Assembly (NCBI GenBank): GCA_002349565.1
Contig: DEDN01000030.1
Coordinates: 9,184 to 73,183 of the forward strand
Source of the DNA: Alphaproteobacteria bacterium UBA2903
Lineage (GTDB): Bacteria > Pseudomonadota > Alphaproteobacteria > CAAGCB01 > CAG-977
Direction: 5' to 3'
DNA: 64,000 bases
Shown: one piece after another, positions 8,167-41,694 of the stretch
Numbering within the stretch: position 1 is the first letter of the stretch
Layout: each line of letters begins with the position of its first letter
Notes under the pieces: generated by a model
The model's input: only the letters and a program-made list of their open reading frames with translations
The model's database searches: none
Told to the model about the DNA's origin: nothing
Translations under genes and position numbers: made by a program

Positions 8167-8645
8167 CCGCTTTAAAGAAAACCAACGCCATGCGCCTGCT
8201 GGAACAGGCAAAAGTGCCTTTCGAGTTTTACGAATACGAAACGTCCGACGGCAAAATCGATGCGAAATCCGTCGCCGCCAAAATCGGGCAAGCCCCCGAA
8301 CAGGTGTTCAAAACGCTGGTAACGCAATCGCCGACGCACGAACATTTCGTTTTCGTCGTCCCCAGCATCGGCGAGCTTGACTTGAAAAAAGCCGCCAAAG
8401 CCGCAGGGCAAAAAAGCATCGAAATGATAGCGCAAAAGCAACTGTTGCCGCTGACGGGCTATATTCACGGCGGATGTTCGCCAATCGGCATGAAAAAGCC
8501 GTTCCCGACATTCATCGACGAAACGGCTTTGCTGTACGACAAATTCTGCATCAGCGCGGGCAAAGTCGGCGTGAACCTGTGCCTGAACCCGCAAGACGCC
8601 GCGGCGTATTTAAACGCTCAATTCGTCGATTTGCTCAAAGGCTGA
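8163..8645 (+). CDS. ybaK: Cys-tRNA(Pro)/Cys-tRNA(Cys) deacylase YbaK
   Basis: It is 160 aa and has the YbaK/ProX-type editing domain motifs (FEFYEY..., GYIHGGCSPIG). Confidence 0.8.
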   Translation: MTALKKTNAMRLLEQAKVPFEFYEYETSDGKIDAKSVAAKIGQAPEQVFKTLVTQSPTHEHFVFVVPSIGELDLKKAAKAAGQKSIEMIAQKQLLPLTGYIHGGCSPIGMKKPFPTFIDETALLYDKFCISAGKVGVNLCLNPQDAAAYLNAQFVDLLKG

Positions 8646-11014
8646 ACATACTCCCGCACGATATCGGGGGCGCGCCACGGTCCGAGAACGGACGGCAACA
8701 CTTTGCCCGACGGTGTTTTCGGGGAAAACAGAATGTTGGCGGGCAGGATATCCTGCCCCGTTCCTTCCAGCAGACGGCGCACAAACGGATGCGCATAGGA
8801 AACGCCCATCACTATCAGATTTCCCTGCTTGATTTCGTCACGCCCGCCTTTGTACATCATAACCAGTCTGTTGGATTGACAAATCAAACAGCCGCTTTCC
8901 GTCACATTCAAATAAACCGATTTGCCGTCCGCAACGGCTTGTTTCAGCACTTGTTCGTCGAAATCGGCGGCTCCGAATGTGTTGAAGTCGTATTCCGTCG
9001 GCAAAAGCGGCACTACCGCCAAGCTTGCCAGCAAAGCGGCAGCCGCCGTTTTTTTGCGGTCGAAATATTTAAACACCAATCCGACAATGACCGCGAAAAC
9101 GATTGCAATATCTGTCCTGAACGCTCCGATTTCCAGCCCGAGCGTTACAGCCAGCAGAACGATTTGAACAAACAAGGGCGCAACCATGACTTTGGACAGG
9201 AATTTAATTTCTTTGCCCGATTTGATTGCGGCTTCGTTCAGCAAAATCACAAGCACGAACACCGATGCCGCCGCCGATAAAAACAACAGCGTGTAAACGA
9301 CTGGCGATCGGCTCAGCAGTTCTAGAAGCCCGTTGAAAAACGCAATCTCCGGCGTAAAAAGCAACAATCCCGCACAAATCAATCCTGTCAGAAAGCCCGC
9401 CGTTTTCCGCGGATTGTCCGACTTGACAAACGGCAGACGCGAAACAAACGCATCGTCAAACAATTTGGGCAGAATGACTGCCGCGGCGGAAAAAGCGGCA
9501 ATGTACACGCCGTTCAGCCACGGGGATTTGAATTGGACACCGAAAAACGCAAATCTGCCCGCCCAATGCCCGATAAGAACCAAAGCGGCAGCACCGCAAA
9601 CGCTCCACTTTGCGCTGTCAGCCAACCCGTCAAAGAAATCCCCCGTTCTTTCAGCCGTTCTGTTGTCCGCATTGAACATCTGGTACATCAGCATCAAAAC
9701 GGCTGTCAGCAGCGGCGTCAAAAGCAGCGTCAGAAATCCGCCTGCAAAAGCGGCGAAACATCCCGCAATCGACGTTGAAAAATTGAACGCAAAATCTTTT
9801 CCGACAGCGGCATTGACGGGAAACTCGTCGGCTTTGACTTGGTTATAAAACGTCAACGTCAGCGGAATTTCCTTTTTATCGGCGATTTTTTCGGGATTTT
9901 TCAAGCGCGCGCGATAAAAGAAACCGCTCCCCTCCGAACCGACGAAAGCATCCTCGAAATGCAATCCGAGTTCGTTCGCAATCCGCAGTTTCGGCTCTCC
10001 CGCAAAAGAAAACGGCTTTTCAACAGCGGCGATCAGGAAAACTTCGCCCTGCTCTTTTTTCAAAACGGCGTCTTTCAGTTTTATTTTTGCATTGCGGCGC
10101 GCCGGAGCGTTATAAACCGTCCTGTTCAGTTCCGTGCAAACGGACGATTCCAGATAAGATTCCGGAATTTCGTATTCGACTTGCGGATAATGTTCCACGG
10201 CGCACACGCCGTCGCGGCAAACGGTCGCTTTCGCCGTCGCGCGGACAATTGCGGGTTTGGCGGTGTCTTGGATGTGAACAGTAAAGGGCAACACGGCTTC
10301 TTTGACATACCCCGTCGCATTCAATTCCGGCAATTCATCCTGCAGCGGATAATCAGGCGCATCGACAACGACGTTTTCGGAAGCGGAAAAATCCAAAGTT
10401 ACGGGCGCGGGGCGTTCGCCCTCCCTTTGCTGCAAAATAACGGCGGACGGATCCTGCAACAGCATCGCCCCCATCAGCAAATTCGGGTTTGCGGCGTCCG
10501 TCCGCGCGCATGCCGCCAGCATAAACGCCCCCGACGGCGTGTAAACGGGATCCGAAAAGTACTTGCTTTTCGTGAAATCCCACAAGTAATCTTTTAAATT
10601 TCGATCACCGACCGCCATATATTGGATATTCGTCCATGTCGAAGAATCGTCGGGATCAATCAGCAAATCGTCGCGTCCGGGATTGTTTTCCCGAATTTGA
10701 CGGTTGATATCGTCCACAGCCATGCGGATATAAGAGTCATAGTTGTCGAGCTGCGACGAAATTTTGGCGAACATTCTAATTTTGAAATTGTTTTGAATCC
10801 CGTCGATTTTGACGATTTCATTCAAAATTTCGCCGTCCGTCGCGCCGACCGCTTTGTTTTTTTTGTAAAAGTCGACCAAAAACGACATTTTGTCTTTTGC
10901 GGGCAAAGCGTTGTACTTTTCCAAATCCCCGTATGTGAGCGGAATAACCTCCGCAGCGCAAAGATTGGGAAAAACCGCCAGCAGCAGCAAAAAAACAAAG
11001 CGAAACATTTTCAT
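8618..11014 (-). CDS. dsbD: DsbD-family thiol:disulfide interchange (protein-disulfide reductase) protein with long N-terminal extension
   Basis: It has a signal peptide. The periplasmic N-domain carries a Cys pair (TVCRDGVC). The multi-TM core has two Cys (SIAGCFAAF and WSVCGAA). The C-terminal thioredoxin-like domain has CXXC (ESGCLICQ). At 798 aa it is far longer than the 565 aa of E. coli DsbD. Confidence 0.7.
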   Translation of the reverse strand: MKMFRFVFLLLLAVFPNLCAAEVIPLTYGDLEKYNALPAKDKMSFLVDFYKKNKAVGATDGEILNEIVKIDGIQNNFKIRMFAKISSQLDNYDSYIRMAVDDINRQIRENNPGRDDLLIDPDDSSTWTNIQYMAVGDRNLKDYLWDFTKSKYFSDPVYTPSGAFMLAACARTDAANPNLLMGAMLLQDPSAVILQQREGERPAPVTLDFSASENVVVDAPDYPLQDELPELNATGYVKEAVLPFTVHIQDTAKPAIVRATAKATVCRDGVCAVEHYPQVEYEIPESYLESSVCTELNRTVYNAPARRNAKIKLKDAVLKKEQGEVFLIAAVEKPFSFAGEPKLRIANELGLHFEDAFVGSEGSGFFYRARLKNPEKIADKKEIPLTLTFYNQVKADEFPVNAAVGKDFAFNFSTSIAGCFAAFAGGFLTLLLTPLLTAVLMLMYQMFNADNRTAERTGDFFDGLADSAKWSVCGAAALVLIGHWAGRFAFFGVQFKSPWLNGVYIAAFSAAAVILPKLFDDAFVSRLPFVKSDNPRKTAGFLTGLICAGLLLFTPEIAFFNGLLELLSRSPVVYTLLFLSAAASVFVLVILLNEAAIKSGKEIKFLSKVMVAPLFVQIVLLAVTLGLEIGAFRTDIAIVFAVIVGLVFKYFDRKKTAAAALLASLAVVPLLPTEYDFNTFGAADFDEQVLKQAVADGKSVYLNVTESGCLICQSNRLVMMYKGGRDEIKQGNLIVMGVSYAHPFVRRLLEGTGQDILPANILFSPKTPSGKVLPSVLGPWRAPDIVREYVQPLSKSTN

Positions 11015-14161: not shown

Positions 14162-14734
14162 ATGGGAGTTTTTAAAATGTTGCTTAATTTGCCCGACAGT
14201 ATTCTGTTCCGCCCCGTCCGTCCGCAGGATTTGAATGCGGTGATGGAAATCGAAAAAGGGGCGTTCGATGCCGGTGTACAGGAAGGCAGCGATTTGTACG
14301 AAAAGCGGATTGACGCGTTTCGCGACGGTTTTCTGGTTGCCGAAGATTACGAAACGGGGCAAGTCGGCGCATATATCTGTTCCGAAATCTGGCACAAGGA
14401 TATGGCGCTGGATTCGGAAACGCTCGCCCTCGGACACGATCCGCAGAAAGCCCACAATCCGCAGGGAACGCAGCTGTACATCACATCGTTTGCCGCGCGT
14501 TCCGATTGGCGCGGACGGCAAATCGGGACGGGATTGTTTCAAGCGCTGGAAAAACGGATTCGGACGAAATATCCCGCCGTTGACGAATTCATTTTGATTG
14601 TGTCCGAAAAATGGAACGCCGCGCATCACATCTATGAAAAAGGCGGCTTCAAGGAAATCGGTCGGATTATCAATTTCTTCACGCCCGACAACAAACCCGA
14701 GGAAGACGCGATTTTAATGCGCAAAGCCTTATAA
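14162..14734 (+). CDS. GNAT-family N-acetyltransferase
   Basis: It has the acetyl-CoA binding motif region ([16 protein letters not shown]), is 190 aa, and has a start alternative at MLLNLP (14177). Confidence 0.7.
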
Positions 14735-15196
14735 GTGTTCCGCCGCCCACTGCTTGGCGGTGGCGGCAAGCGGCGCGATATCCGCGTTTTTCAGCCGATC
14801 GGGCGGCAGATAAGCCGCCAGTTCGATTAAACGCGCCGCCCGTTTGTCCAATGCTTTGTTTTTCAGCGTTTGACGCAAAAACGCGCTCCATTGCGCGCCA
14901 TGCAAAGCGGCAACCTGCTCTTTCGGGAACTTCATCAGCGCCATACGCCGCAACAGTCCCAGCAAAGCCGTTATTTTGTCGTATGCGTCGCCTTGTTTCG
15001 TTATGCGGTCGATTTCGGCAAACGTGTACGCTTTCGCCGTCAGCTTGCGGCGGTATTTCAAGGCAACGCGGATTAAAACGGCAAAGACGATTACACCCGC
15101 CAGCATATACCATACGCTTGCATTCGGCGGGAAAGCCGACGGCATAGGCGGCAAATGAATGTCTTTCAATCCCGACAGATCGATATTCGGCTGCAT
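14729..15196 (-). CDS. DUF4381-like small membrane protein, third gene of MoxR operon
   Basis: It has one TM (WYMLAGVIVFAVLI) and lies immediately downstream of the MoxR and DUF58 genes. Its start overlaps the stop of the DUF58 gene. Confidence 0.55.
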   Translation of the reverse strand: MQPNIDLSGLKDIHLPPMPSAFPPNASVWYMLAGVIVFAVLIRVALKYRRKLTAKAYTFAEIDRITKQGDAYDKITALLGLLRRMALMKFPKEQVAALHGAQWSAFLRQTLKNKALDKRAARLIELAAYLPPDRLKNADIAPLAATAKQWAAEHL

Positions 15197-16155
15197 TACC
15201 CTTTCCTTTCAAACAAAGCGGAACGAAGCGTTCGAATCAAATCGTCATCCGTTCGGACGGGAACATACAGCATTTTGTGCGCCAAGCAAAAATCGGAAAC
15301 ACGCTTGCGCGCCGTTTCAAAACGCTGTGTGTACGCCGTGCGCCAATCCGCATCATCGGCGGGCAAAGTCATCATGTTTTGTCCGTCGCTGACACGATAC
15401 GTCCCCGACGGCGGCGGTGCGGCTTCCAGCGCGTCGAAAATTTGAACGCACACCACATCGCAATGCAGTCCGATTGCCGCCAAATGTTTTTCGGAATCTT
15501 CGTCAAAGTCGTGAAAGTCGCTCAGCACGAACACGCGTCCGCCCGTTTTGCTGACACGTCGCAATTCCGCCAGAACGCCCGACAACGCGGGTTCGTTTTC
15601 GGCGGCGTTCAAATCGTCGCATGCGGCGGCGGTCGCGTTGAACACCTCCATCAGCCGCCGCATCTGGCGGTGCGGAGCGACCTTGACAAACCCGTTCGAC
15701 GATACAATCAGCGCGCCGATTTTGTCGCCGTTTTCGCGCGACGCCCACGCCAAAGCCGCCAAAGCTTTTGCCGCAACCACGGATTTAAAGGCTTTGCGCG
15801 TGCCGAATTTCATAAAGCTGCGGAAATCCCCCAAAAACAAAACGGGACGGTCGCGTTCTTCGCGGTACAATTTGGTATAGGGCTTTCCCGTCCGCGCGGT
15901 TACGCGCCAGTCTATCAACCGCACGTCATCGCCCGCGTGATAGGATCGCACTTCGTCGAACTCCATGCCGCGTCCGCGAAACGGCGAACGGTGCTGTCCG
16001 AATCCTTCGGAGCGCGACACGCCGCGCGTATCAAACGACAGCAGCCGCACAAAACGCTTCATCGCCGTCAAATCCGACAAAGCGACCGAAACGCCGTTTT
16101 CCCGATTTTCTTCGGTACGTTCGGCTTTCAGCAATGTGCGCAGTTTTTCCAGCAT
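15196..16155 (-). CDS. DUF58 domain protein (vWA-like, MoxR partner)
   Basis: It is 319 aa and has the characteristic DUF58 region (RPYHAGDDVRLIDWRVTARTGKPYTKLYREERDRPVLFL). It is adjacent to and overlaps the MoxR ATPase gene. Confidence 0.75.
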   Translation of the reverse strand: MLEKLRTLLKAERTEENRENGVSVALSDLTAMKRFVRLLSFDTRGVSRSEGFGQHRSPFRGRGMEFDEVRSYHAGDDVRLIDWRVTARTGKPYTKLYREERDRPVLFLGDFRSFMKFGTRKAFKSVVAAKALAALAWASRENGDKIGALIVSSNGFVKVAPHRQMRRLMEVFNATAAACDDLNAAENEPALSGVLAELRRVSKTGGRVFVLSDFHDFDEDSEKHLAAIGLHCDVVCVQIFDALEAAPPPSGTYRVSDGQNMMTLPADDADWRTAYTQRFETARKRVSDFCLAHKMLYVPVRTDDDLIRTLRSALFERKG

Positions 16156-17132
16156 TACGGCAAAGGCACCCGTTTCAACAGCAAATCCAAAAAGCTGTCG
16201 GGCGTAATGCCCTCGGCTTCTGCTTCAAACGTCAAAATGACGCGGTGGCGCAGAACATCATGAACGATGCCGTGCACGTCTTCGGGCAGGACAAAATCGC
16301 GCCCCGCCAGCCACGCTTTCGCCCGCGCACAGCAGTCAAGCGCGATTGTGCCGCGCGGGCTTGCCCCGAAAGCGACCAAGCGTTTGAACTTTTCGCCGTA
16401 TTTTTCGGGTTTGCGCGTCGCCATGACCAGCTGAATGACATATTCCTCCAAAGCGGGGGACAAATGCACGTTCAAAACTTCGCGGCGGGCTTCAAAAACG
16501 CGCTGCTGAGGCATAACCTCGACGGGGATTTCAGCCCCCTCCTCCAGCGCTTCGTTGCGGACAATCTGCAAAATCCGACGTTCCGCCGCCGCGTCGGGCT
16601 GGTCGATTTTGACATACATCAAAAAACGGTCAAGCTGCGCTTCCGGCAAAGGATACGTCCCTTCCTGCTCTATCGGGTTTTGGGTCGCCATAACCATAAA
16701 CAAAGCGGGCAAACGATATGTTTTTCCGCCGACGGTGACTTGCCGTTCCGCCATGGCTTCCAGCAAAGCCGACTGCACTTTCGCGGGCGCGCGGTTGATT
16801 TCGTCAGCTAAAATCAAGTTGTGGAAAATCGGTCCCGCCTGGAATTTGAAATCGCCCGTTTCGGGACGGTAAATATCGCTGCCCGTAATATCGGACGGCA
16901 GCAAGTCGGGCGTGAACTGAATACGCTGATCGTCGCCTTCAATGGCTTCGGACAGTTTTTTGATTGCCTTTGTTTTCGCCAGCCCCGGCGCGCCTTCGAC
17001 CAGCAAATGACCGTCCGCCAGCAAAGCGACCAACAGCTTGTCCACCAAATCCGCCTGTCCGACGATATTGGCGTTCATATAGTCTTTTAACCGCTGAAAA
17101 CTGCGGGCGGCAACCGTTTTTTCCCGTTCCAT
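16155..17132 (-). CDS. MoxR-family AAA+ ATPase
   Basis: Walker A is GAPGLAKT. Walker B/sensor is ILADEINRAPAKVQSALLEAMAERQVTVGG. The protein is 325 aa. Confidence 0.85.
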   Translation of the reverse strand: MEREKTVAARSFQRLKDYMNANIVGQADLVDKLLVALLADGHLLVEGAPGLAKTKAIKKLSEAIEGDDQRIQFTPDLLPSDITGSDIYRPETGDFKFQAGPIFHNLILADEINRAPAKVQSALLEAMAERQVTVGGKTYRLPALFMVMATQNPIEQEGTYPLPEAQLDRFLMYVKIDQPDAAAERRILQIVRNEALEEGAEIPVEVMPQQRVFEARREVLNVHLSPALEEYVIQLVMATRKPEKYGEKFKRLVAFGASPRGTIALDCCARAKAWLAGRDFVLPEDVHGIVHDVLRHRVILTFEAEAEGITPDSFLDLLLKRVPLP

Positions 17133-17163: not shown

Positions 17164-18306
17164 TTAGTACGCGCGCCGCCTGCATGCAAGGGGCAGCAGA
17201 ACGGCAATCACCGTTTGCATTGACACGCCGATTTTCGCCGCCCAAACGCCGTCAAAGAAAATCGCCCCGAACGCCAAAACAAACAGGGGCAAGTCCGCTT
17301 TCAAATACCCGCGCCGTTCGGAATCGTACAGCAAAAACGCACCCGCCGCGGATAAAAGCGCGCCGTCCCCCGCCGCCGCAACGGGTGTCAGCAACACGCT
17401 TGCGGCACACAAAAACGCATTCTGCACAGCTTCTGATTTAAAGCGATACTTGAAAAACAGCTTATATCCGATTGAAAACACATACAACACACAGACGGTC
17501 TGAAAAAGTATAGCGACAAAAGGACTTGCCCCGCCGCACAGCAAAATCCCCGCAGGCGACACAAAGCGGCACGGAGCGGCTTTCAACGCCTGGAACGCCG
17601 CCGAAACAGCCGCGCCGTAAGCCGCAAAACCGTAGCGCATCCCTGCCGCAATCAGCAAAAAACCGCCGACCAAAGCCGCCGTCATCAACGCTTTTTTCTG
17701 TTTTCTAAAAGCAAACGCAAACAAGACCAAAGCGAACATCAGCGGCTCAGCCGCCAGCAATCCGCCGAAGAATCCCGCCCGTTTCGGACAGTTTTCCGCC
17801 AGCATCAAAGACAGCACGGCGCAAGCGGCGACATACAGTCCGAAACCGCCGAACGCGAAATTCAAAAACGCGGCGGGCAAAGCGGCAAGCAGTAAAACGG
17901 AGATACGCAAAGGAAACAACGCGTACAGCGCAACGCCGAACAGAAAAAATCCCCAGAAAAACACAGTATCGAAATAGCCTATATACGGCAAAGGCATGAA
18001 CGGCACGGCGATAAAAGCTTTGACGGGCGACGCGAACGCGGCAAAAGTCCCCCTGCTTTGCATTTTATTGCGCAAATACGCGGTTTGCACGGCGGAATCG
18101 TATGCGTCCGCGGGGGAGCTTTCCAACAATCGGAACGCCGCAAAATCCCCTGCGGCGTCTTCACCGATGACGCGCAAAGCCGAACTTTCCAAACGCGGCA
18201 AGCCGTCTTCATTATACATCGCCGACCGCAGCAGCAGAGTGTAAACCGTCATCGCGCCGATCAAAAACAGCAGCACCAGTTGAAAAAAGCGTTTTTCCGT
18301 ACTCAT
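17164..18306 (-). CDS. Uncharacterised polytopic integral membrane protein (about 10 predicted TM helices)
   Basis: The 380-aa protein is dominated by hydrophobic Ala/Phe/Leu/Gly-rich segments. There is a 31-nt gap to the MoxR gene downstream and a 34-nt gap to the DUF3800 gene upstream, all on the same strand. Confidence 0.55.
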   Translation of the reverse strand: MSTEKRFFQLVLLFLIGAMTVYTLLLRSAMYNEDGLPRLESSALRVIGEDAAGDFAAFRLLESSPADAYDSAVQTAYLRNKMQSRGTFAAFASPVKAFIAVPFMPLPYIGYFDTVFFWGFFLFGVALYALFPLRISVLLLAALPAAFLNFAFGGFGLYVAACAVLSLMLAENCPKRAGFFGGLLAAEPLMFALVLFAFAFRKQKKALMTAALVGGFLLIAAGMRYGFAAYGAAVSAAFQALKAAPCRFVSPAGILLCGGASPFVAILFQTVCVLYVFSIGYKLFFKYRFKSEAVQNAFLCAASVLLTPVAAAGDGALLSAAGAFLLYDSERRGYLKADLPLFVLAFGAIFFDGVWAAKIGVSMQTVIAVLLPLACRRRAY

Positions 18307-21687: not shown

Positions 21688-21718
21688 AAAGGCGGAGAAT
21701 TTTCCCCGCCTTTTGCTT
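21688..21718. terminator. Bidirectional intrinsic terminator (A7-GGCGG...CCGCC-T4) at the 3' end of the autotransporter gene
   Basis: The sequence aaaaaaaggcggagaattttccccgcctttt was read directly. It serves the minus-strand autotransporter, whose stop is at 21718, and any plus-strand read-through from ppa. Confidence 0.5.
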
Positions 21719-24700
21719 TAAAAGTTGATTTTCGCATTCATCACAACGGAATGGCTTTCCAGTTTTCCTTGGAACATACCGTCGTACAAAAGGGACAGGC
21801 TGGCGGATTTGCCGAAATTCATTGAAAAACCCGCCCCCGCTTCAATGCCGAACCGTTTGTCTTGGTCCGTTTCAACGATATAGCTTGTGCCGTTGGGCAG
21901 CACCGCGGTCCTGTCGCTGCCGGTGCGGACAAAATCGTATGTGGCGGCGGCTTTCAGTTCCGGCATAAACAAAACGGGGGTCTTCCCTTTCAGACGATAC
22001 CGTTTTGACAGCTTGAATCCGAGGACAGAGGTTGCGGCGGAACTGTTTTTGTCTTCCAGCTCAACCCCCAAAGCATCGGTGTAAGCCTTTTGATGCGTGT
22101 TGATGAAGCGCACGGCGAATTCGGGGGACAACAGCACGGGAGCGGCATAGCCGAACGCGATTTGCGCGCTGATCGTGTTGGTCTGGTATTCGCTTTCCAA
22201 TTTCGCGATTTTTGTTGTGTCGTTGTAGGAGGAACGACCGAAGCCCGCAAAAAAGTTCGTGTAGAACCGTTTGGGCTGATACTGGGCGTACACAAAACCC
22301 GTTTGCGTGTCAACATCGACATCGGATCTGTCCGCGTCAATGGATGTCGAAGCATAGGAATACCCCAATCCGACTTTGAAATCATCGGAAAGATAGGCTT
22401 CCATACCCGCCGCAAACCCTGCCGAATCGGATGAAAAGCCCTCTGTTCCGCGCTGTTCGGCGTGGTTGTACAGCCCTTGCGCCCAAACCGCGCCGTTTCC
22501 TGCTTCGTAATCGCCGCCGGAACGTCCGTACATCCGTCTGTATCCGGCAAAACGGGGCGCGCTCGGCATATTAAAGCGGGTGGACACGACATTGATAACG
22601 TTTTTGGCGTGGTTTTCGTCAATCAGGATTCCGAATTTCGACAAATCGGGGGCGATTTCGCGCATAACTTGGTATTTCTTTTCGGTATCGCCGTCAAACT
22701 TTGTCAGCAAATCGTCGATTTTATTCAAAGCGTCTTGCTGTTTGTCCGTCAGCTTGTCCAAATCTTTGTCGTTCAGATCCAGAATTTTCAAAGCGTCCTT
22801 GATAACGGGATGAACTTCCATGTCTTTGACCATCGAGGCAGCTGACAAGCGCAATATGTACAGATCTCCACCGTCCCAGTTCGTCAAAGCTCCGATTTTC
22901 GAAGCGTCCGCAGGGTCGAAATATTTTGCCGAAACCGCATAACGGCTTGTCAAATAGTCGCCGAATTTGAACCCCGATCCTTCGGTGATGTGATACAGCG
23001 TCGTTTTGGTGGTGGATGCCGTCCCCATTTCCAGCTTGATCGTAACGTTTTCCGCATTGGCGGTGATGATGGGCGTGGTCTTTGCGGCATCGGTCAATAT
23101 GGCGGAAATCGTCCCGCCCGTGATGTTGTCCGCTTTCAACGGGGTCGCCCCGATGTCCAGCGTTTTGCTGTCGCCGATGCCGATATCGCGGAATGAAAAG
23201 CCGTAGCCGCGGGTCACGTCGCTTAACGCGTAATCGGCATTAAAGTTCACATTCGCCGATCCCGACAGCGTGCCGTTCAGACGCGCCGATGAGGTTTGAA
23301 AATCAATCGTCGCGCCGTCGGCGGCGACATCGCCGATCATCGTTCCTTTTAACTCAAGGGTGGAAGCACCGTCCAAATGCAATTTCTCGTCTGCGGACGA
23401 AAACGTCAAAACGGCGTTGTCGGCGACATCCAAAACAGAGCCGACAAACTGAACTTTACCCGAACGGGCGGACAATTCGTTGTTGCCGTTGGCAATGATT
23501 TTTGAGTTTTCGACATATATGTTGCCCGCCTCGAAAGCCACACTTAAAGGAGTAACCATGTAGGGTTGTACATTATATACAGGGGCTTTTTCATTTGACA
23601 AACTGTCGTTGATCAGCTTTGCATTGTCGTTCAGCACAAATGTCGAATTGACAATCGTTACATCCGCCCCGTAACCATTTTTCAAAGTGTTGTTGAAGTC
23701 TTCATAATCAAACGTCATCCATTCTCTAAAACCTGCTTCATCATTGCACCTCGATTGGATTTCTTCTTTGGTGGAAGAACTGCCGAAAATCTTTTTTGTA
23801 AAATCCGTCAATGATTCGCCATCTCCGTAAACATCTTCAACAAGGAAGTCTACGGCAGTCTTGATTTCATCGGCTGTCAATTGACCGCGAAAGAGCAAAA
23901 GAGGACTGTCTTCACTCGAACTGCCGACACTCGAAACCGAAGCCGGAGGTCTGTAGGCGGTGGATGCCAAAGAAGCATATCCGATTCCCGCGGCTGAATT
24001 TCCATTTAAAGTTATTGTCGCATCCGTAAAAGCGACATCATATTTGTCGGCAGAATAAATTTGGGAAGGGGTGTACAATGTTTTGCCATCAATTTGGTAA
24101 ACCAAGATTCCGGTATTTGTAAAATCACCCAAAAAAGAATTGTTGTTCGCCGTGATTTTTTTCGGAAACAGACAGCGCAGAAATTGATGTATCCGAAACG
24201 GAAATCCCCCGTTCACCCGTAACTTTTAAATCCCAAGTCGAAATTAACGGATATTCAGGAACATTATATCCCAGCCCATTTGATTTGTATATTGTGTTGA
24301 AAGACACCTTGTCGGAATCGATGGAAATCGTTTCGGCGTCCAAATATACAAAATCATCCAGAGTGCCGCCCGTAAGGGTGATGGTGCCAGCCTTAAATGC
24401 CGCCGCCCCGAACGTTCCCCCCGAAATTGTAATGCTCCCCGAGTTTTGAGCTCTAAAAGAAACGTCCGAGAAATCGCCGTCCTCAATCGACAAAGCGGCG
24501 GACGCATCGTACCAGCCGCCTTTGTGCGTTCCGCCCTTGATTGTGATATCCGGTGCGTCAATGTCTGTATCCGAAAAATCACCGGCTTCAATCAGTAAAG
24601 AATCTTCATCGGAAAGATATTCATTTTTATGTGGTCCCTCCGAAATTGTTGTTGCCGCTTCGACGATATAAGGAAAAAACGTTAAATTCGCCAAAAAACA

Positions 24701-25933: not shown

Positions 25934-26179
25934 AGAGTTATTCCCTACATTGAAGTTAAAAACTGCAAGGAAGATACCCAATACCCCGCCTTGTGTCAAC
26001 AAAAATCACAACACAAAAACGATTTATTTTCAATGAGTTATAAAATAGGTATTATTTTACCAACTTTACAGGCGTTAAAAACGGTCGGTTTCGGACGAAA
26101 AACGCGCATTTTTCTTTTTACATTGATTTTTTAATCCGAATCCGCCATAGTTCGGTACATTGCGATGGTGGAAACGATT

Positions 26180-27463
26180 ATGAACGAAAACCTTTTTTCT
26201 GCGGAACGCGATTCCGCGCCCGTCAAAGACATTCCTTTCAATATCCCTTTGGTCGCCGATCTGGACGACAACGGCGGGGTTGTCGAACTGACGACTTTTT
26301 ATGAAGCGGGGCGGTTCGCGTCCGCCGAATTGAAAGCCTGGATCGAACTGTTCGGCAAAGAAAAGGCGGACAAGGATTTCTTGCAGACCGTCATCGACTT
26401 TCAGCTGCGCACGCCCCGTTCGATCTGCGCCGCAGCCGAATCGGTCCTGAACGGCGAAATGTCGCCGACCGAAGGCTTTTCCGTCATCCGTTCGGAACTG
26501 AACAACTATCTGGGATTCAAGTGCATTCACAGCGGCGGCACGATCGGAAAAATGGCGGCGGTCATGTACCGCTACGAACCGATGCTGATGGGCATCGTCG
26601 CTGGTGCTTCGGGTTCCGTTCCGCTGTCGGACGCCGAAGCGTATCCGTCGCATGCCGACGCGGAAAGCTTTACGTTCGGCTATGCGCTCACGATGCATTG
26701 CCGCACGAACATCCGCCCCGAAATGCTGGACGGAAAAGTCGGCGACACCCTGCGCAAAATCAACCACATCATCCGCCGCGTCGAACTGGCGGACAAACAG
26801 ATAAAGCCGATTGCCAACGAACAGATAGCCTTGCAGCAAAATATTGAAGAAGCTCACAGGCAGCTGAAAACTTACCGCACGGACGTCGCGGAATACATTT
26901 CCCAACTGGTGGCGGAAATCAAGCAGACTTCGGACAGCGCAATCAATGAAATGTGGAATCAGCTGAACCTGATTCAAAACGATCACGAACGCCAGCTTGC
27001 CGCCCTGCGGCAAAGCGTTTCCAGCCGAATCCGCTACGGGACGGCATTGGATTATTGGAACGCGCAGCAATCCCTGAATCAGGCGAAAGCCAACCAAATG
27101 ACGGGCTGGTATGTAATCTCCGGATTGTTTTCGATTACGTTTTTGGGATTGATCGGCATTCTGACGAAAAAATATCTGGCGGGCGTGTCGGCTTTTGTGC
27201 CGTTCATTACCCTGTTTTTGCCTTTGATGGTCGCGGGCGGACTGTTCTGGCTGCTGCTGCAAACCCGCACGCGTTATGAAAAAGCCGCCGCGCAGGCGCA
27301 GGAAAAAGTAGCCCTGCTGGAAACGCTTGCCGCTTTGGAAACAGAGGGAAAAGCCAAAGAATCCGACAGGGACGGCGTTTTGGAATCGATTTTCAAAACG
27401 ACTTTTACCGCGCCCTCCCCCGCTATGGAAGCGGCGGAACACGAAGATTCCGCCGAATCGTAA
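26180..27463 (+). CDS. Orphan protein: approximately 210-aa N-terminal globular domain, long coiled coil, two adjacent TM helices, acidic C-terminal tail
   Basis: The plus-strand ORF is 26165..27463, with the probable start at ATG 26180 (GGTGGA RBS). Heptad-like stretches are present (ANEQIALQQNIEEAHRQLKTYRTDVAEYISQLVAEIKQ...). The TM hairpin is WYVISGLFSITFLGLIGILT and FVPFITLFLPLMVAGGLFWLLL. A fully antisense 455-aa ORF (26075..27442) exists, but it is Arg/Phe/Gly-rich junk. Confidence 0.55.
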   Translation: MNENLFSAERDSAPVKDIPFNIPLVADLDDNGGVVELTTFYEAGRFASAELKAWIELFGKEKADKDFLQTVIDFQLRTPRSICAAAESVLNGEMSPTEGFSVIRSELNNYLGFKCIHSGGTIGKMAAVMYRYEPMLMGIVAGASGSVPLSDAEAYPSHADAESFTFGYALTMHCRTNIRPEMLDGKVGDTLRKINHIIRRVELADKQIKPIANEQIALQQNIEEAHRQLKTYRTDVAEYISQLVAEIKQTSDSAINEMWNQLNLIQNDHERQLAALRQSVSSRIRYGTALDYWNAQQSLNQAKANQMTGWYVISGLFSITFLGLIGILTKKYLAGVSAFVPFITLFLPLMVAGGLFWLLLQTRTRYEKAAAQAQEKVALLETLAALETEGKAKESDRDGVLESIFKTTFTAPSPAMEAAEHEDSAES

Positions 27464-35903: not shown

Positions 35904-36806
35904 CTATTTTGTTTCAATTTCTTTCAATCGCGCTTCGATTTCGCACAAAGCCGGCAAAGATTCCTGCGCCCCCGTTTTCAAACACGCCAAAGCCGCACCG
36001 CAACACGCATGCCGCACGGCGTCCGCAAAGGACAGCCCCGCGTCAATCATAGCGGCGAATATGCCGACAAACGCATCGCCCGCCCCCGTCGTGTCCACGG
36101 GCGCGATCGGCAAAGAGACTACCGACAGCACTTGCCCGTCCTTGGCGGCGACGACGCCTTTTTTGCCCAAAGTCATCAGGCATGCCCCGCCCGTTTTTTC
36201 AGACAGGGCAAGGACGGTTTTTTCGGGTGTTTCGCCCGCTTTGCCCAAAACGGTTTGCGCTTCGATTTCGTTGACAATCAGATAATCGATGTTCCGCAAA
36301 GCGGTTTGCGGTACTTCGCGCGCGGGGGCGACGTTCAGAACCGTTTTTGCGCCTTTGGCTTTCGCGCGTTCCAACAGGGCGAAATTTTCTGCGGGCGGGA
36401 CTTCCATTTGCATTACGACGACCGTTTCGGGCGTCAGCAAAGCGTCGGGAACGGCGGCGGCGCTGAGGTTCATATTTGCGCCGCTTGCCACAACAATCGA
36501 ATTTTCCGCGGTTTCGTCAAGCATGATCATCGCCATTCCCGTTGCCGAATCCGTCTTTTGCACGAAAGAACAATCGACCCCGACCGCTTTCAATGCCGTC
36601 AGCGGCACTTTGGCGATTTCGTCCGCCCCGACCGCGCCGACAATTTTGACAATGCCGCCCGCTTTTGCCGCGGCGGCGGCTTGGTTCGCCCCCTTGCCGC
36701 CCGCTTTGACAACGGCGTTCGGAGTCAAAACCGTTTCCCCCGGCTTTGGAAAAGACTGGATTTTCAAAAAGAAATCCGCGTTCAGCGATCCGAAAACGAC
36801 TATCAT
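35904..36806 (-). CDS. PfkB-family carbohydrate kinase (ribokinase-like)
   Basis: It has the N-terminal GG motif (VVKAGGKGANQAAAAAKAG) and the PfkB signature 2 (PVDTTGAGDAFVGIFAAM). It is 300 aa. Confidence 0.8.
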   Translation of the reverse strand: MIVVFGSLNADFFLKIQSFPKPGETVLTPNAVVKAGGKGANQAAAAAKAGGIVKIVGAVGADEIAKVPLTALKAVGVDCSFVQKTDSATGMAMIMLDETAENSIVVASGANMNLSAAAVPDALLTPETVVVMQMEVPPAENFALLERAKAKGAKTVLNVAPAREVPQTALRNIDYLIVNEIEAQTVLGKAGETPEKTVLALSEKTGGACLMTLGKKGVVAAKDGQVLSVVSLPIAPVDTTGAGDAFVGIFAAMIDAGLSFADAVRHACCGAALACLKTGAQESLPALCEIEARLKEIETK

Positions 36807-36937
36807 GCGCAGCTCCTTGTTTCGATTTTGTTCAGCATATCAGAACCGCTTGAATGCGACAAGCGCGGATTTTATTTTGTATTTTGGCAAAAACGCGATA
36901 ATCTTAAATCAAATCAATTTCATACGAGGTTTGACAA

Positions 36938-37921
36938 ATGGCTAAAGACGACGATTGGGACGCCGACGATTTGGAAGACGAAGAAGACTACGACGACGAA
37001 GAGGATGATGAAGACGACGATGCGGACAAGGAAGACTCCGCCCGTTCGAAACGACTGGTCGTCGCGTCGTTGAAGATTCTTGTTTCGCTGGCTTTGCTGG
37101 GCGGCGCGGCGATCGTCGTTTTCGCCCCCGGCAAAATTCCGGCGAATCTGACCGCCAAAGTAAAACAGGCAACGCCTTTCATCGAACAAGCCAAACGGCA
37201 GGTTTCTTCCGCCGCGTCGAAAATCACGGCTTCCGACAAAAAAGCGCCGACGCCGCCCCGTATCGCCCCCGCGCGGGAACCGGAAGCCGCCCGCCCCGCC
37301 GCCCCTGTCGATTTCGCGCAAAAACGCGAAATGCCGATAACGGCGGAACCGGTTGAAAAAAACGCAGAACAGCCTGTCGAGCAGCCTGCCAAACCGCAGC
37401 AAAACCGTTTCAACATCAGCGGCAGAGGGCAAATTCCCGATTTGCTGACAGCGATTTCAAACGATCCGCAGCTGAAAGACATTCTGCTCAAAGCGGATGT
37501 CTATACTTTCGAAAAGCTGCCCAAACTGCGTCCGTTCATCAAGTCCTTGATTCTGCGCTGGGCGAAAACGAACAGCTATCCGATGGTTGAAGCCTTGACC
37601 GGCGTTCCGTTCAAAACGTTCGAAGACCATGTTTTGGTTGAACTGTTGCCGTTTACGACGCTGAAACAGGCGGGCTTGACGCCGTCGTATGACGAAAGGC
37701 TGATCAAAGAAAGCCCCTCCAACGCCGCGGGAACGCTGTTCACATACCTGAAACCCGTTGTAGACGCTTTGGATTCGGACAAGGACAAAATCGATACCGT
37801 CGAACCGATTGCGACTTTCTTTGTTTATAAATGCGGCGGCAAAAAAGACTGCCTGATGGCGCTGGATCTGCTGATAGAAATGTTGGGATTGACGGAATAC
37901 AAGGATAAACTGCCGCAATGA
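36938..37921 (+). CDS. Hypothetical membrane-anchored protein (highly acidic N-terminus, single TM, Pro/Ala-rich linker, approximately 170-aa C-terminal domain)
   Basis: The N-terminus is MAKDDDWDADDLEDEEDYDDEEDDEDDDADKEDS. The TM is LVVASLKILVSLALLGGAAIVVFAP, and the linker is PTPPRIAPAREPEAARPAAP. The stop overlaps the ATG of the next gene (ATGA). Confidence 0.55.
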   Translation: MAKDDDWDADDLEDEEDYDDEEDDEDDDADKEDSARSKRLVVASLKILVSLALLGGAAIVVFAPGKIPANLTAKVKQATPFIEQAKRQVSSAASKITASDKKAPTPPRIAPAREPEAARPAAPVDFAQKREMPITAEPVEKNAEQPVEQPAKPQQNRFNISGRGQIPDLLTAISNDPQLKDILLKADVYTFEKLPKLRPFIKSLILRWAKTNSYPMVEALTGVPFKTFEDHVLVELLPFTTLKQAGLTPSYDERLIKESPSNAAGTLFTYLKPVVDALDSDKDKIDTVEPIATFFVYKCGGKKDCLMALDLLIEMLGLTEYKDKLPQ

Positions 37922-39732
37922 CAAAAACGCGTGACTTTTTTTGGCGGATCAGAATCGGCATTATCAGCCGCACAGCCGCTTTCAAAGAAAAAGCAATTCG
38001 GACGTTTCAAGCCGTCCGCCGTTTTTCCCTGCGCCAAAGTCTGCGCGCGTTTCCGTCCGCAGCGCGTCAATTTTTCAAGCATACGCCTCAAACGCTGCTG
38101 CTGTGGACCGCCAAAGCCAAAGGCGGGCGGCTTCGGCTGATTTTGCTGTTTGCGATTTTGTCCGTCGTTTTCGGGCTGGCTGCCATGCCGTTCCGCTTTA
38201 TTGCGAACGACGGTTTCGTGTCGTTCCGTTATGTCGCGCAATCCGCCGCCGGAAACGGCTTTGTCTGGAATCCGCCGCCGTTTGAACCCGTCAGCGGATA
38301 CACCAGCTTTCTGTGGCTGGTTTGTTTGCGGATTTTGTGGTTTTTCGGATTTCAGCCGCCGTTTTCCGCGAATCTGCTGACTTTTTCGTTTTCGATGGGG
38401 GCGGTGGTTTTCGGCTTTTTGTTTTTGCGGCGCGCGCCGTTTTCGCCCGTTCTGCAAAGCAAAAGCTTTTTTCTGTTTTTGCTTTATTGTTTGATTTTGC
38501 TGACAAATCCGACCTTTTTGATGTTTTTCTGGTCGGGAACGGAAGCCGCTTTGTTCAATTTTCTGGTTTTGTGGTGGACATACACCGCCGCAGGCAAAGA
38601 CAAACACCCCGTCAAACAATCCGTTATCGCCGTTTTACTGGCAATGACACGGTGGGACGGCGTTGTTTTTCTTCCGTTCACGCTGATTTTAAACATTCTG
38701 ACGTTCAAACATGCCAAACTGAAGTCCGTTGCGGCGGCGGCGTTTTTGTGCCTGTCCTATTTTTATTTCGATTGGATAAAGCAAACTTACGGTTCGGTCA
38801 TTTCGACAAGCTTTGCCGCTTTGCGAAAAGACAACTTGCCGTTCGGATTTGATTACGCCGGCAGCTTCGCCGTCGAATACGCCCTTTGGTTTTGGGGAAT
38901 TTTCTTTGCGGCAGGTGCGTTGTTCAAAATCGCGCGGCACAGAAAAGCGGAACTGGAGTTTCCCTGCTTGATGATAGTGCTGTTTACGGCATATATCTTG
39001 TTTTTCTCCGTCCTTATCGGAGCGGACGTTTTGGCTTACCGTCCTTTGTCGTTCTTTGTCCCGCTTGCCGCTTTGGGCGCGATCAGAGTGCTGACTGCCG
39101 GCATTACAAGCCGCCTGAGAACGGTTGCCGCGATTGTTTGTCTGTATGTCGGGCTGTCGCTGGTCATTCCGATCACGCATTTTGCCGAGGTTCGCGACTT
39201 GACGACCCGTCGGCAAACGGCGTTTTTGTACAAACCCGTCGGCAAACCCTTGTTAGCTTTCTTTGCGGATTACTGGAACAAAGCGCAGCAGCGTTTGATA
39301 TATCAAGGGGCGGCTTTGCGGCACAAAGAACATCAAGTCTTGTTCAACGAACTGACAAAAAGCCTTCCTTCGCGCGAAAAAGGCAAACTGCTGAAAGCCG
39401 AATACCGCCGCATACTGGCATGGGATTTTGCGGGACAGATTGGTTGGGTGTTTCCGTATGTTTACATTTTGGACACATCGGGACAAAACGACCGTTTTAT
39501 CGCGGCAAGCAAATTCAAGTACGACAACCGCCGTCTGTTGGGACATGAAAGAGTCGTCGCACAGGGATATCCCTTGTGTTTCGGCGGAAACAATCTGAAA
39601 ATCACACCGTTTGACGGAACGCCAGACGTTCAGTACATCCCCGCGCCGTTTCCGCTGACGGACGGCATTATCAAAGGATGCGAAAAGCTGTGGAATCCTT
39701 TGAACAGCCGCATTCCCGTCAAAAAGAATTAA
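37918..39732 (+). CDS. Large polytopic membrane protein, possible GT-C-fold glycosyltransferase-like (speculative)
   Basis: It is 604 aa with more than 10 hydrophobic segments, for example [41 protein letters not shown] and [15 protein letters not shown]. The extracytoplasmic loops have conserved-looking acidic/aromatic motifs ([12 protein letters not shown]) and the C-terminal soluble domain is approximately 150 aa. The antisense ORF 37825..38619 is Lys/Arg/Gln junk. Confidence 0.55.
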
Positions 39733-41115: not shown

Positions 41116-41694
41116 TTATAAACTTTCCCGCCCGCTTTGACCAGCGTTATTTTCCAACCGTTCCAAGATAAGACGATTCTGCTCTTCGATTTCCTTTTCC
41201 AACTTCAGCCGTTCTTCCCGCGCACGTTCCATCAAAGTCATCGGATCTTCGGGGACGGTTTCGGGCATCGGCAGCGTATCGAACTTTTTGAACTGTTCAT
41301 CCAAATACTTCGGATCGGTCAATTTTTCAAACAGCTCTTTTTCCGCTTTTTCATCAATCGGCGGCAAAGAAAACGGCGGCGAAAAATCGGGCGGCAGGTA
41401 TTCGCTCCCCGTTACTTTCCCCCAAACGACGCGCGCGTCGCACCACGCCGTTTGATAGGAACACACCGTCATCCGCGTCAGTTTGTCAACGGACAAATCG
41501 GCTTGAAGCTTATCCCCCATGCAAACAAACAGTTGCGCTCCGCACCCCTTGAAAGAACCGTCTTTGGACGTTGAAACGAAAATAGCCAGAATGACCGCAA
41601 AAACAAACAGAATCACGGCGGGAAACCATAGCGTTAATACATACTTAACACTTTTCTTGAATTTCCTTGCGTATCTGGCTATTTTTTCTTTCAT
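41116..41694 (-). CDS. Hypothetical membrane-anchored protein with Cys-containing exported domain and coiled-coil C-terminus
   Basis: The N-terminal TM is [22 protein letters not shown]. Four Cys are present ([10 protein letters not shown]...CSYQTAWC), and the tail is Glu/Lys-rich helical. It lies between glmS and the DAHP synthase gene on the same strand. Confidence 0.45.

Follow-up and report, generated by a model that had tools for sequence, protein, structure and literature searches.

A predicted AftB-branch glycosyltransferase paired with a lineage-specific single-pass membrane protein in gut and rumen Alphaproteobacteria

Background

AftB is an essential builder of the mycobacterial cell wall, where it adds sugars. 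To our knowledge, it is the only structurally characterised retaining glycosyltransferase (GT) of the GT-C type, and it belongs to CAZy family GT89. Enzymes of the GT-C type require a lipid-linked sugar donor and a flippase. Here we describe a distant relative of AftB, together with the protein encoded directly upstream of it, in a stretch of 64,000 nucleotides (nt) from Alphaproteobacteria bacterium UBA2903 (GenBank assembly GCA_002349565.1, contig DEDN01000030.1, positions 9,184 to 73,183 of the forward strand). This whole 64-kb stretch is called the window below, and coordinates are counted from its first letter. Gene A (36938..37921, + strand) encodes a lineage-specific, single-pass membrane protein of 327 amino acids (aa) without a Pfam or NCBIfam family. 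Gene B (37918..39732, + strand) encodes a 604-aa protein with the predicted GT-C_A fold of the AftB family.

In AftB, juxtamembrane helix 1 bears at its tip the aspartate D62, which is essential for catalysis, and R221 and R372 are essential ligands of the phosphate; T91, E172 and T274 make the remaining contacts to the donor, and D541 and H563 are among the residues of the periplasmic domain near the acceptor (PMC12041299). D62 is part of a DD motif, D61-D62, in which essentiality was shown for D62 only (PMC12041299). In Gram-negative bacteria, GT-C enzymes add pentofuranose side chains in the periplasm, and the study that showed this names AftB as the only earlier case of a pentofuranosyl GT-C that is retaining and beta-linking (Kelly et al. 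2024, PMC11127046).

The locus described here can also be compared with the three-component systems, namely GtrABC, ArnC/E/F/T and the GT136 pentofuranose system of Citrobacter youngae, in which a GT-C enzyme and a flipped polyprenyl-phosphate monosaccharide serve the periplasmic decoration of an envelope glycan (PMC11127046). The likeness would lie in this general scheme. In those systems, however, the synthase and flippase genes adjoin the GT-C gene, whereas none were found within the 64 kb around B, and they lack a single-pass partner like A. A polytopic glycosyltransferase with a single-pass partner is represented by the pairs of SEDS proteins and class B penicillin-binding proteins, RodA-PBP2 and FtsW-FtsI, and proteins of the FtsN/TonB type are single-pass proteins with proline-rich spacers. 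What these share with A and B is the combination of a polytopic transferase and a partner in which a short cytoplasmic tail and one transmembrane (TM) helix lead through a spacer to a periplasmic domain, and this resemblance is one of analogy only.

Results

Protein B has no match in Pfam, the ArnT/PMT families (PMT, PMT_2 and related) included. In NCBIfam, it matches the terminal beta-(1->2)-arabinofuranosyltransferase family below threshold (NF041481, E 1.6e-6, 26.5 bits). A profile made from an alignment of 46 homologues of B was compared with all PDB sequences, and the sole match was AftB of Mycobacterium chubuense (9dlf/9dlh, E 1.5e-25), covering positions 44-416 of the profile. The AlphaFold2 model of B (mean predicted local distance difference test score, pLDDT, 90.6; predicted template-modelling score 0.89) shows the AftB-type layout of 11 TM helices followed by a C-terminal alpha/beta domain. 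It includes the N-terminal module of GT-C_A enzymes, in which TM helices 1-7 are accompanied by a pair of juxtamembrane helices that lie between TM1 and TM2. The best matches of B in sequence as well as in fold are active enzymes. A reading made earlier from the DNA letters and translated reading frames (the sequence-only reading) had guessed from the architecture, with at least 10 hydrophobic segments and a C-terminal soluble domain in a 604-aa protein, that B is GT-C-like. The membrane domain (residues ~70-425, 38125..39192, + strand) is now predicted to hold about 11 TM helices, and the C-terminal domain (residues ~426-604, 39193..39729, + strand) is non-membrane and would be periplasmic by homology. 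The profile match, the predicted fold and the conserved active site all bear out this guess, which can be narrowed to the AftB branch.

The correspondence of residues was read from the HMMER alignment of the B profile to AftB. The 12-residue motif to which the sequence-only reading had drawn attention begins at residue 94 (38197..38232, + strand) and holds D98, the counterpart of the catalytic D62, which is Asp in 45 of the 46 homologues. Within the membrane domain, the two phosphate-binding arginines R221 and R372 correspond to R245 (conserved in 44 of 46) and R375 (42 of 46, with Lys in the other 4). The sugar contacts T91, E172 and T274 correspond to T129 (37 Thr and 7 Ser), E209 (all 46) and S298 (21 Ser and 11 Thr). 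The two residues of the periplasmic domain near the acceptor are kept as well, D541 as D519 (46/46) and H563 as H543 (40/46). The profile match and the conserved active-site residues, taken together, place B by sequence in the AftB branch of GT-C_A and indicate that it is probably active as a glycosyltransferase. Since R245 and R375 align with R221 and R372, there is also indirect support for a lipid-phosphate-linked donor, which B, by homology, would use on the extracytoplasmic side.

B is nevertheless a distant homologue of AftB, without the status of an ortholog; the two differ at all but about 16% of their residues. Its host, a Gram-negative alphaproteobacterium, carries lipid A genes (LpxB, LpxI) in the vicinity, and as far as we know such a host would have neither arabinogalactan nor lipoarabinomannan as an acceptor. 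There is no ubiA/DPPR-synthase neighbour at B, unlike at the mycobacterial aftB locus. Moreover, B differs from AftB in having both the dedicated upstream partner and an additional, basic stretch at its N-terminus (residues 1-66, net charge +13, 37918..38115, + strand), in which the model places helices at 4-34 and 38-54, before TM1.

Relatives of B were sought in one genome per GTDB species, and at least 434 were found. Among the matches listed, they come mostly from Planctomycetota, Acidobacteriota, Myxococcota, Chloroflexota and candidate phyla, and the same matches include a tight group of gut and rumen metagenome-assembled genomes (MAGs) labelled 'Alphaproteobacteria bacterium', with 42-48% identity in B. 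Closer relatives, at 64% identity, are found in a MAG labelled Acetobacter sp. Searching the literature for 'AftB-like' gave no match.

A hidden Markov model (HMM) of A was run against all open reading frames (ORFs) of 90 loci. In all the alphaproteobacterial loci among them (L001-L008, L011-L014, L027, L028), the gene immediately before B encodes a homologue of A, and the same HMM found none in the ~74 loci from other phyla. Protein A is known only from gut and rumen alphaproteobacterial MAGs, and nowhere but beside B. The pairing persists at identities down to 42% in B and down to 23-27% in A. The distance from the stop of A to the start of B is -4 nt in five cases, and +1, +2, +2, +12, +13 and +18 nt in others; the ATGA overlap seen in the window recurs in L001, L003/L027 and L007, the other loci having gaps of +1 to +18 nt. 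Both the pairing and the gap are kept where genes have been inserted downstream of B (L003, L005). The sequence-only reading had proposed looking for co-occurrence of the two genes across genomes, and the pair is indeed present in all related alphaproteobacterial loci that we examined. Neither a non-glycosyltransferase fold for B nor an absence of pairing elsewhere, the two outcomes that it had named as contrary to its view, was found.

Outside the Alphaproteobacteria, no comparable context was seen. All-against-all clustering of the neighbours of B homologues in the ~74 non-alphaproteobacterial loci gave no family present in more than 5 loci. The neighbourhoods of three further distant B homologues are unrelated and show no consistent context, and those of two B homologues fused to TPR repeats are likewise unrelated. 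The N-terminal extension of B follows the same boundary: it is specific to the alphaproteobacterial clade with A and is missing from homologues in other phyla. Its length in most members is 65-73 residues, with net charges of +6 to +14, and in 9 of 11 loci compared with A it is basic at +6 to +13. The tail of A is net negative in 11 of 11 loci, with charges from -6 to -26, and in each of the 11 the two segments differ in sign.

The N-terminal tail of A (residues 1-35, 36938..37042, + strand) is hyper-acidic and predicted to be disordered, with pLDDT below 50. As the sequence-only reading had estimated, 24 of these 35 residues are Asp or Glu, and 2 are Lys or Arg; the peptide DDDWDADDLEDEEDYDDEEDDEDDDADKED begins at residue 4. 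At the DNA level, the acidic tract corresponds to an imperfect GAM triplet repeat (36974-37036), which codes for part of the tail. The protein cluster of A includes length variants of 324 aa and 327 aa, and the contigs of three independent metagenome assemblies break inside gene A (L095-L097). These two observations suggest that the acidic repeat tract varies in length between strains. Among homologues, a (D/F)D(W/H)D element is conserved in the acidic tail, and the family shows no variation at M1, D6, D8, W208 or the cysteine pair C299/C305.

The tail is followed by an invariant EDSARSKRL and a single TM helix (~residues 40-63, 37055..37126, + strand), which is supported by hydropathy, by the alignment and by a helix at 31-62 in the predicted model. 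The model shows residues 1-39 as disordered and places a second helix at 69-98. Residues 66-156 contain 14 Pro, 18 Ala and 9 Ser/Thr, so that the TM helix and Pro/Ala-rich spacer of the sequence-only reading are both present. The disordered part of this linker (~residues 99-156, 37232..37405, + strand; 95-156 in the model), as judged from model and composition, differs in length and sequence among homologues and is much shorter in some. The C-terminal domain (residues 157-327, 37406..37918, + strand) is predicted to be all-alpha with pLDDT ~90, and it contains the invariant Trp208 and Cys299/Cys305. Pfam and NCBIfam scans of A gave compositional, sub-threshold matches only and no named family, and the profile of A found nothing meaningful among PDB sequences. 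The C-terminal domain has no solved relative.

The family of A is very small. A search of 1.84 billion representative proteins with the profile of A returned 16 matches at or below 1e-30, all of them full-length or fragmentary A proteins. The same search gave weaker matches (E 2e-15 to 7e-4), of which eight were checked, all of them aligning with the C-terminal domain in its first half. Half of these are large RTX calcium-binding repeat proteins (P0089, P0095, P0096, P0097), two of which also carry LysM domains. Three others (P0094, P0099, P0100) end in glycine/aspartate repeats of the GGxGxD type and look like RTX fragments. RTX repeats are absent from the last, P0093, in which the module follows DPLVLDLNGDGI; this resembles the start of a self-processing module of the FrpC type. 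Profile-profile comparison showed residues 159-273 of A to be homologous to this RTX/LysM module (hhalign, probability 98.8%, E 4.3e-17), and the two have in common the motif L(R/K)G(Y/A)G-x-(L/I)P(D/S)L...A......L....(I/L)(L/Y)x(R/Q)WA. The module is ~130-200 aa long and, like the domain of A, has no named family or solved structure. It sits in large secreted proteins and differs from A in lacking the Cys pair and the C-terminal helices. The 170-aa domain that had been called unrecognised in the sequence-only reading therefore remains without a family name, but it does have relatives.

The occurrence of a related module in secreted proteins and the invariant Cys pair suggest a topology for A in which the acidic tail is cytoplasmic and the helical domain is periplasmic. 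A strongly basic stretch N-terminal of the TM helix in some homologues also points to a cytoplasmic tail. In this orientation, the periplasmic domain of A is probably clamped by a disulfide between Cys299 and Cys305.

Genes A and B overlap in ATGA (37918..37921, + strand), composed of the TGA of A and the ATG of B, as had been read from the sequence at the outset. Upstream of A lies an intergenic region of 131 nt (36807..36937), which separates it from the divergent, ribokinase-like pfkB gene. The pair thus has its own upstream region, as proposed, although 36807, the start then assigned to the module, is the first base of this intergenic region and not a gene start. A Shine-Dalgarno sequence, GAGG, can be read at 36926-36929, 8 nt before the ATG of gene A, and a scan of the + strand upstream of A for a sigma-70 consensus promoter found none. 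At its other end, gene B is convergent with the gene of the class-II 3-deoxy-D-arabino-heptulosonate 7-phosphate (DAHP) synthase on the - strand, again as noted before, and the two stop codons have the palindromic TTAA in common (39729..39732). Because of this overlap, there is no space for a terminator between them. The same 4-nt overlap occurs in L001 (9845-9848), the relative with 64% identity. Terminator-like matches inside genes number 16, more than the mean of 7.9 in shuffled sequence.

Codon usage is of the coding type for both ORFs, A having been outside the training set. As homologues of both exist elsewhere, A and B are not chance ORFs; identical copies of both proteins are present, without names, in several public assemblies. 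A true start of B downstream of the ATG was considered and ruled out, the N-terminal 70 residues being kept in homologues and the frame opening just 9 nt upstream of the ATG.

The divergent pfkB-family kinase gene (35904-36806, - strand) encodes a ribokinase-like protein (TIGR02152, 252.9 bits, below the cutoff of 299.65), and it keeps its place beside A in the alphaproteobacterial loci with listed gene calls (L001-L008, L094). On the other side, a 192-aa single-pass membrane protein (41116-41694, - strand) has no Pfam or NCBIfam match; its counterparts of 187-211 aa are syntenic between the DAHP synthase and glmS genes in related loci. In L003 (10741-11901) and L005 (9767-10924), B and the DAHP synthase gene are separated by an inserted gene of opposite strand, whose product of 385-386 aa has a weak match to QRPTase_N (phosphoribosyltransferase), and in L003 an acetyltransferase gene is likewise inserted there.

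Elsewhere in the window, a 380-aa membrane protein (17164-18306, - strand) has a match to Pfam GT87 just below threshold (E 8.5e-5, 22.8 bits, cutoff 25) and may be a second GT-C-type, PimE-like glycosyltransferase. Its gene adjoins genes for a MoxR AAA protein (16155-17132), a DUF58 protein (15196-16155) and a DUF4381 protein (14729-15196). Other products include a 798-aa protein without a Pfam family whose N-terminus resembles a signal peptide (8618-11014, - strand), an 832-aa autotransporter (21718-24216, - strand) with a Pfam match at the C-terminal beta-domain only and none in the passenger region, and a 432-aa protein without a Pfam family (26165-27463, + strand).

Discussion

The reading that we favour, and to which we would give a somewhat better than even chance, is that B is a periplasm-facing glycosyltransferase dependent on a lipid-phosphate sugar, and that A is its dedicated partner in the same step. 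By homology, B would be integral to the inner membrane and draw a sugar, on the periplasmic side, from a polyprenyl-phosphate-linked donor, with D98 as the catalytic carboxylate and R245 and R375 holding the lipid phosphate. It would then hand the sugar to an envelope glycan, which its C-terminal domain would hold. A would be made together with B through translational coupling, and may associate with B or act in the same step. The most likely role of A would be binding or positioning of the acceptor, or localisation of the enzyme. As the acidic tail of A and the basic extension of B should both be cytoplasmic, an electrostatic contact between the two is conceivable, if speculative.

Several observations weigh against this reading or restrict it. 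The NCBIfam match of B reaches 26.5 bits against an equivalog cutoff of 1050 and covers residues 71-330 only. Furthermore, the DD motif of AftB is N97-D98 in B, the first position being Asn in 27 and Asp in 18 of the 46 homologues. For these two reasons, the substrate specificity of AftB is not transferable to B. The region cysS-gltX-nadE-pfkB / A-B / DAHP synthase-glmS-glmU is syntenic across the clade, so that the adjacency of A and B counts for less than it would if gene order had been shuffled. The B-like enzymes of other phyla occur without A. In one sub-lineage, the extension of B has only 15-24 residues, and electrostatic contact can therefore not be the whole basis of any interaction between A and B. 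Finally, no polyprenyl-phosphate sugar synthase, epimerase or flippase was found among the scanned genes of the window, for which the targets were GT2/GtrB-like proteins, UbiA/DPPR synthase, DprE1/2 and GtrA/SMR. The sequence-only reading had described the pair as an autonomous module. In a functional sense this does not hold, since a donor and a flippase are required and the window has no gene for either; such genes may lie elsewhere in the genome.

Part of the same evidence would fit the view that A and B are merely operon-mates in a small and highly syntenic genome, B working alone and A having an unrelated role in the envelope. The neighbourhood is collinear across the clade, B homologues outside it have no conserved neighbour (the best family reaches 5 of ~74 loci), and the domain of A occurs also in RTX proteins, with no linkage to GT-C genes in the data examined. 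We consider this unlikely, given that A is found solely beside B, that every examined alphaproteobacterial locus has the pair, that the gap stays within -4 to +18 nt despite the insertions in L003 and L005, and that the basic extension of B is restricted to the clade having A. A different relationship would be that of enzyme and substrate, with A as a membrane-anchored glycoprotein that B glycosylates on its linker or periplasmic domain. The gene order of substrate followed by GT-C has a precedent in pilin/TfpW, that is, pilA-tfpW of Pseudomonas, which involves D-arabinofuranose (PMC11194591). A and B are strictly co-inherited, and the extracytoplasmic linker contains Pro, Ala, Ser and Thr, including the 9 Ser/Thr in residues 66-156. 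However, no Ser, Thr or Asn is invariant in the periplasmic part of A, and the linker that would carry the sugar is variable and in some homologues much shorter. Moreover, AftB and its relatives act on glycans and not on proteins, and the counterparts of D541 and H563 are retained in B. These points make a substrate role for A quite improbable.

Some proteins with the GT-C fold are non-catalytic, PIG-U/GAB1 being an example, and B could in principle be a transporter or a degenerate scaffold of this kind. The change from DD to ND in this clade might be taken in that sense. Against it, the 46 homologues show next to no variation at the catalytic Asp, at the two phosphate-binding Arg or at the Glu that contacts the sugar, and the closest matches in sequence and fold are active enzymes, so that an inactive B appears very improbable.

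The leading, though speculative, guess for the donor is a pentofuranose of the arabinofuranose or ribofuranose type. This guess comes from the AftB residues touching the arabinofuranose ring, which are kept in B, and from the precedent of periplasmic pentofuranose GT-C enzymes in Gram-negative bacteria (PMC11127046). It also draws on the ribokinase-like divergent neighbour, since ribose 5-phosphate feeds phosphoribosyl pyrophosphate (PRPP), the precursor of pentofuranose donors (PMC11194591). The adjacency of this kinase carries little weight, because the whole region is syntenic in the clade, and the failure to find synthase, epimerase or flippase genes in the window speaks against the guess. 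A fully specified version would be a two-subunit, AftB-type retaining pentofuranosyltransferase that transfers beta-arabinofuranose or beta-ribofuranose from an undecaprenyl-phosphate donor to lipopolysaccharide or another envelope glycan, A supplying in trans a new module for glycan binding or positioning, which secreted RTX/LysM proteins would use as well. We regard this version as decidedly unlikely.

Conclusions

The enzyme class to which B belongs is already established. What is new is a distant member of the AftB family and its obligate pairing with a novel partner. A large unnamed family, spread across many phyla, keeps the active site of AftB, and in one gut and rumen alphaproteobacterial lineage the enzyme has gained a dedicated single-pass partner. 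If A and B form a complex, they would provide a tractable model of how GT-C enzymes recruit acceptors through separate subunits, as well as a first functional handle on a domain common to RTX surface proteins. Should the two-subunit pentofuranosyltransferase be real, it would be the first AftB-type enzyme at work outside Actinobacteria. More generally, the locus could point to an undescribed modification of an envelope glycan in abundant, uncultured gut Alphaproteobacteria.

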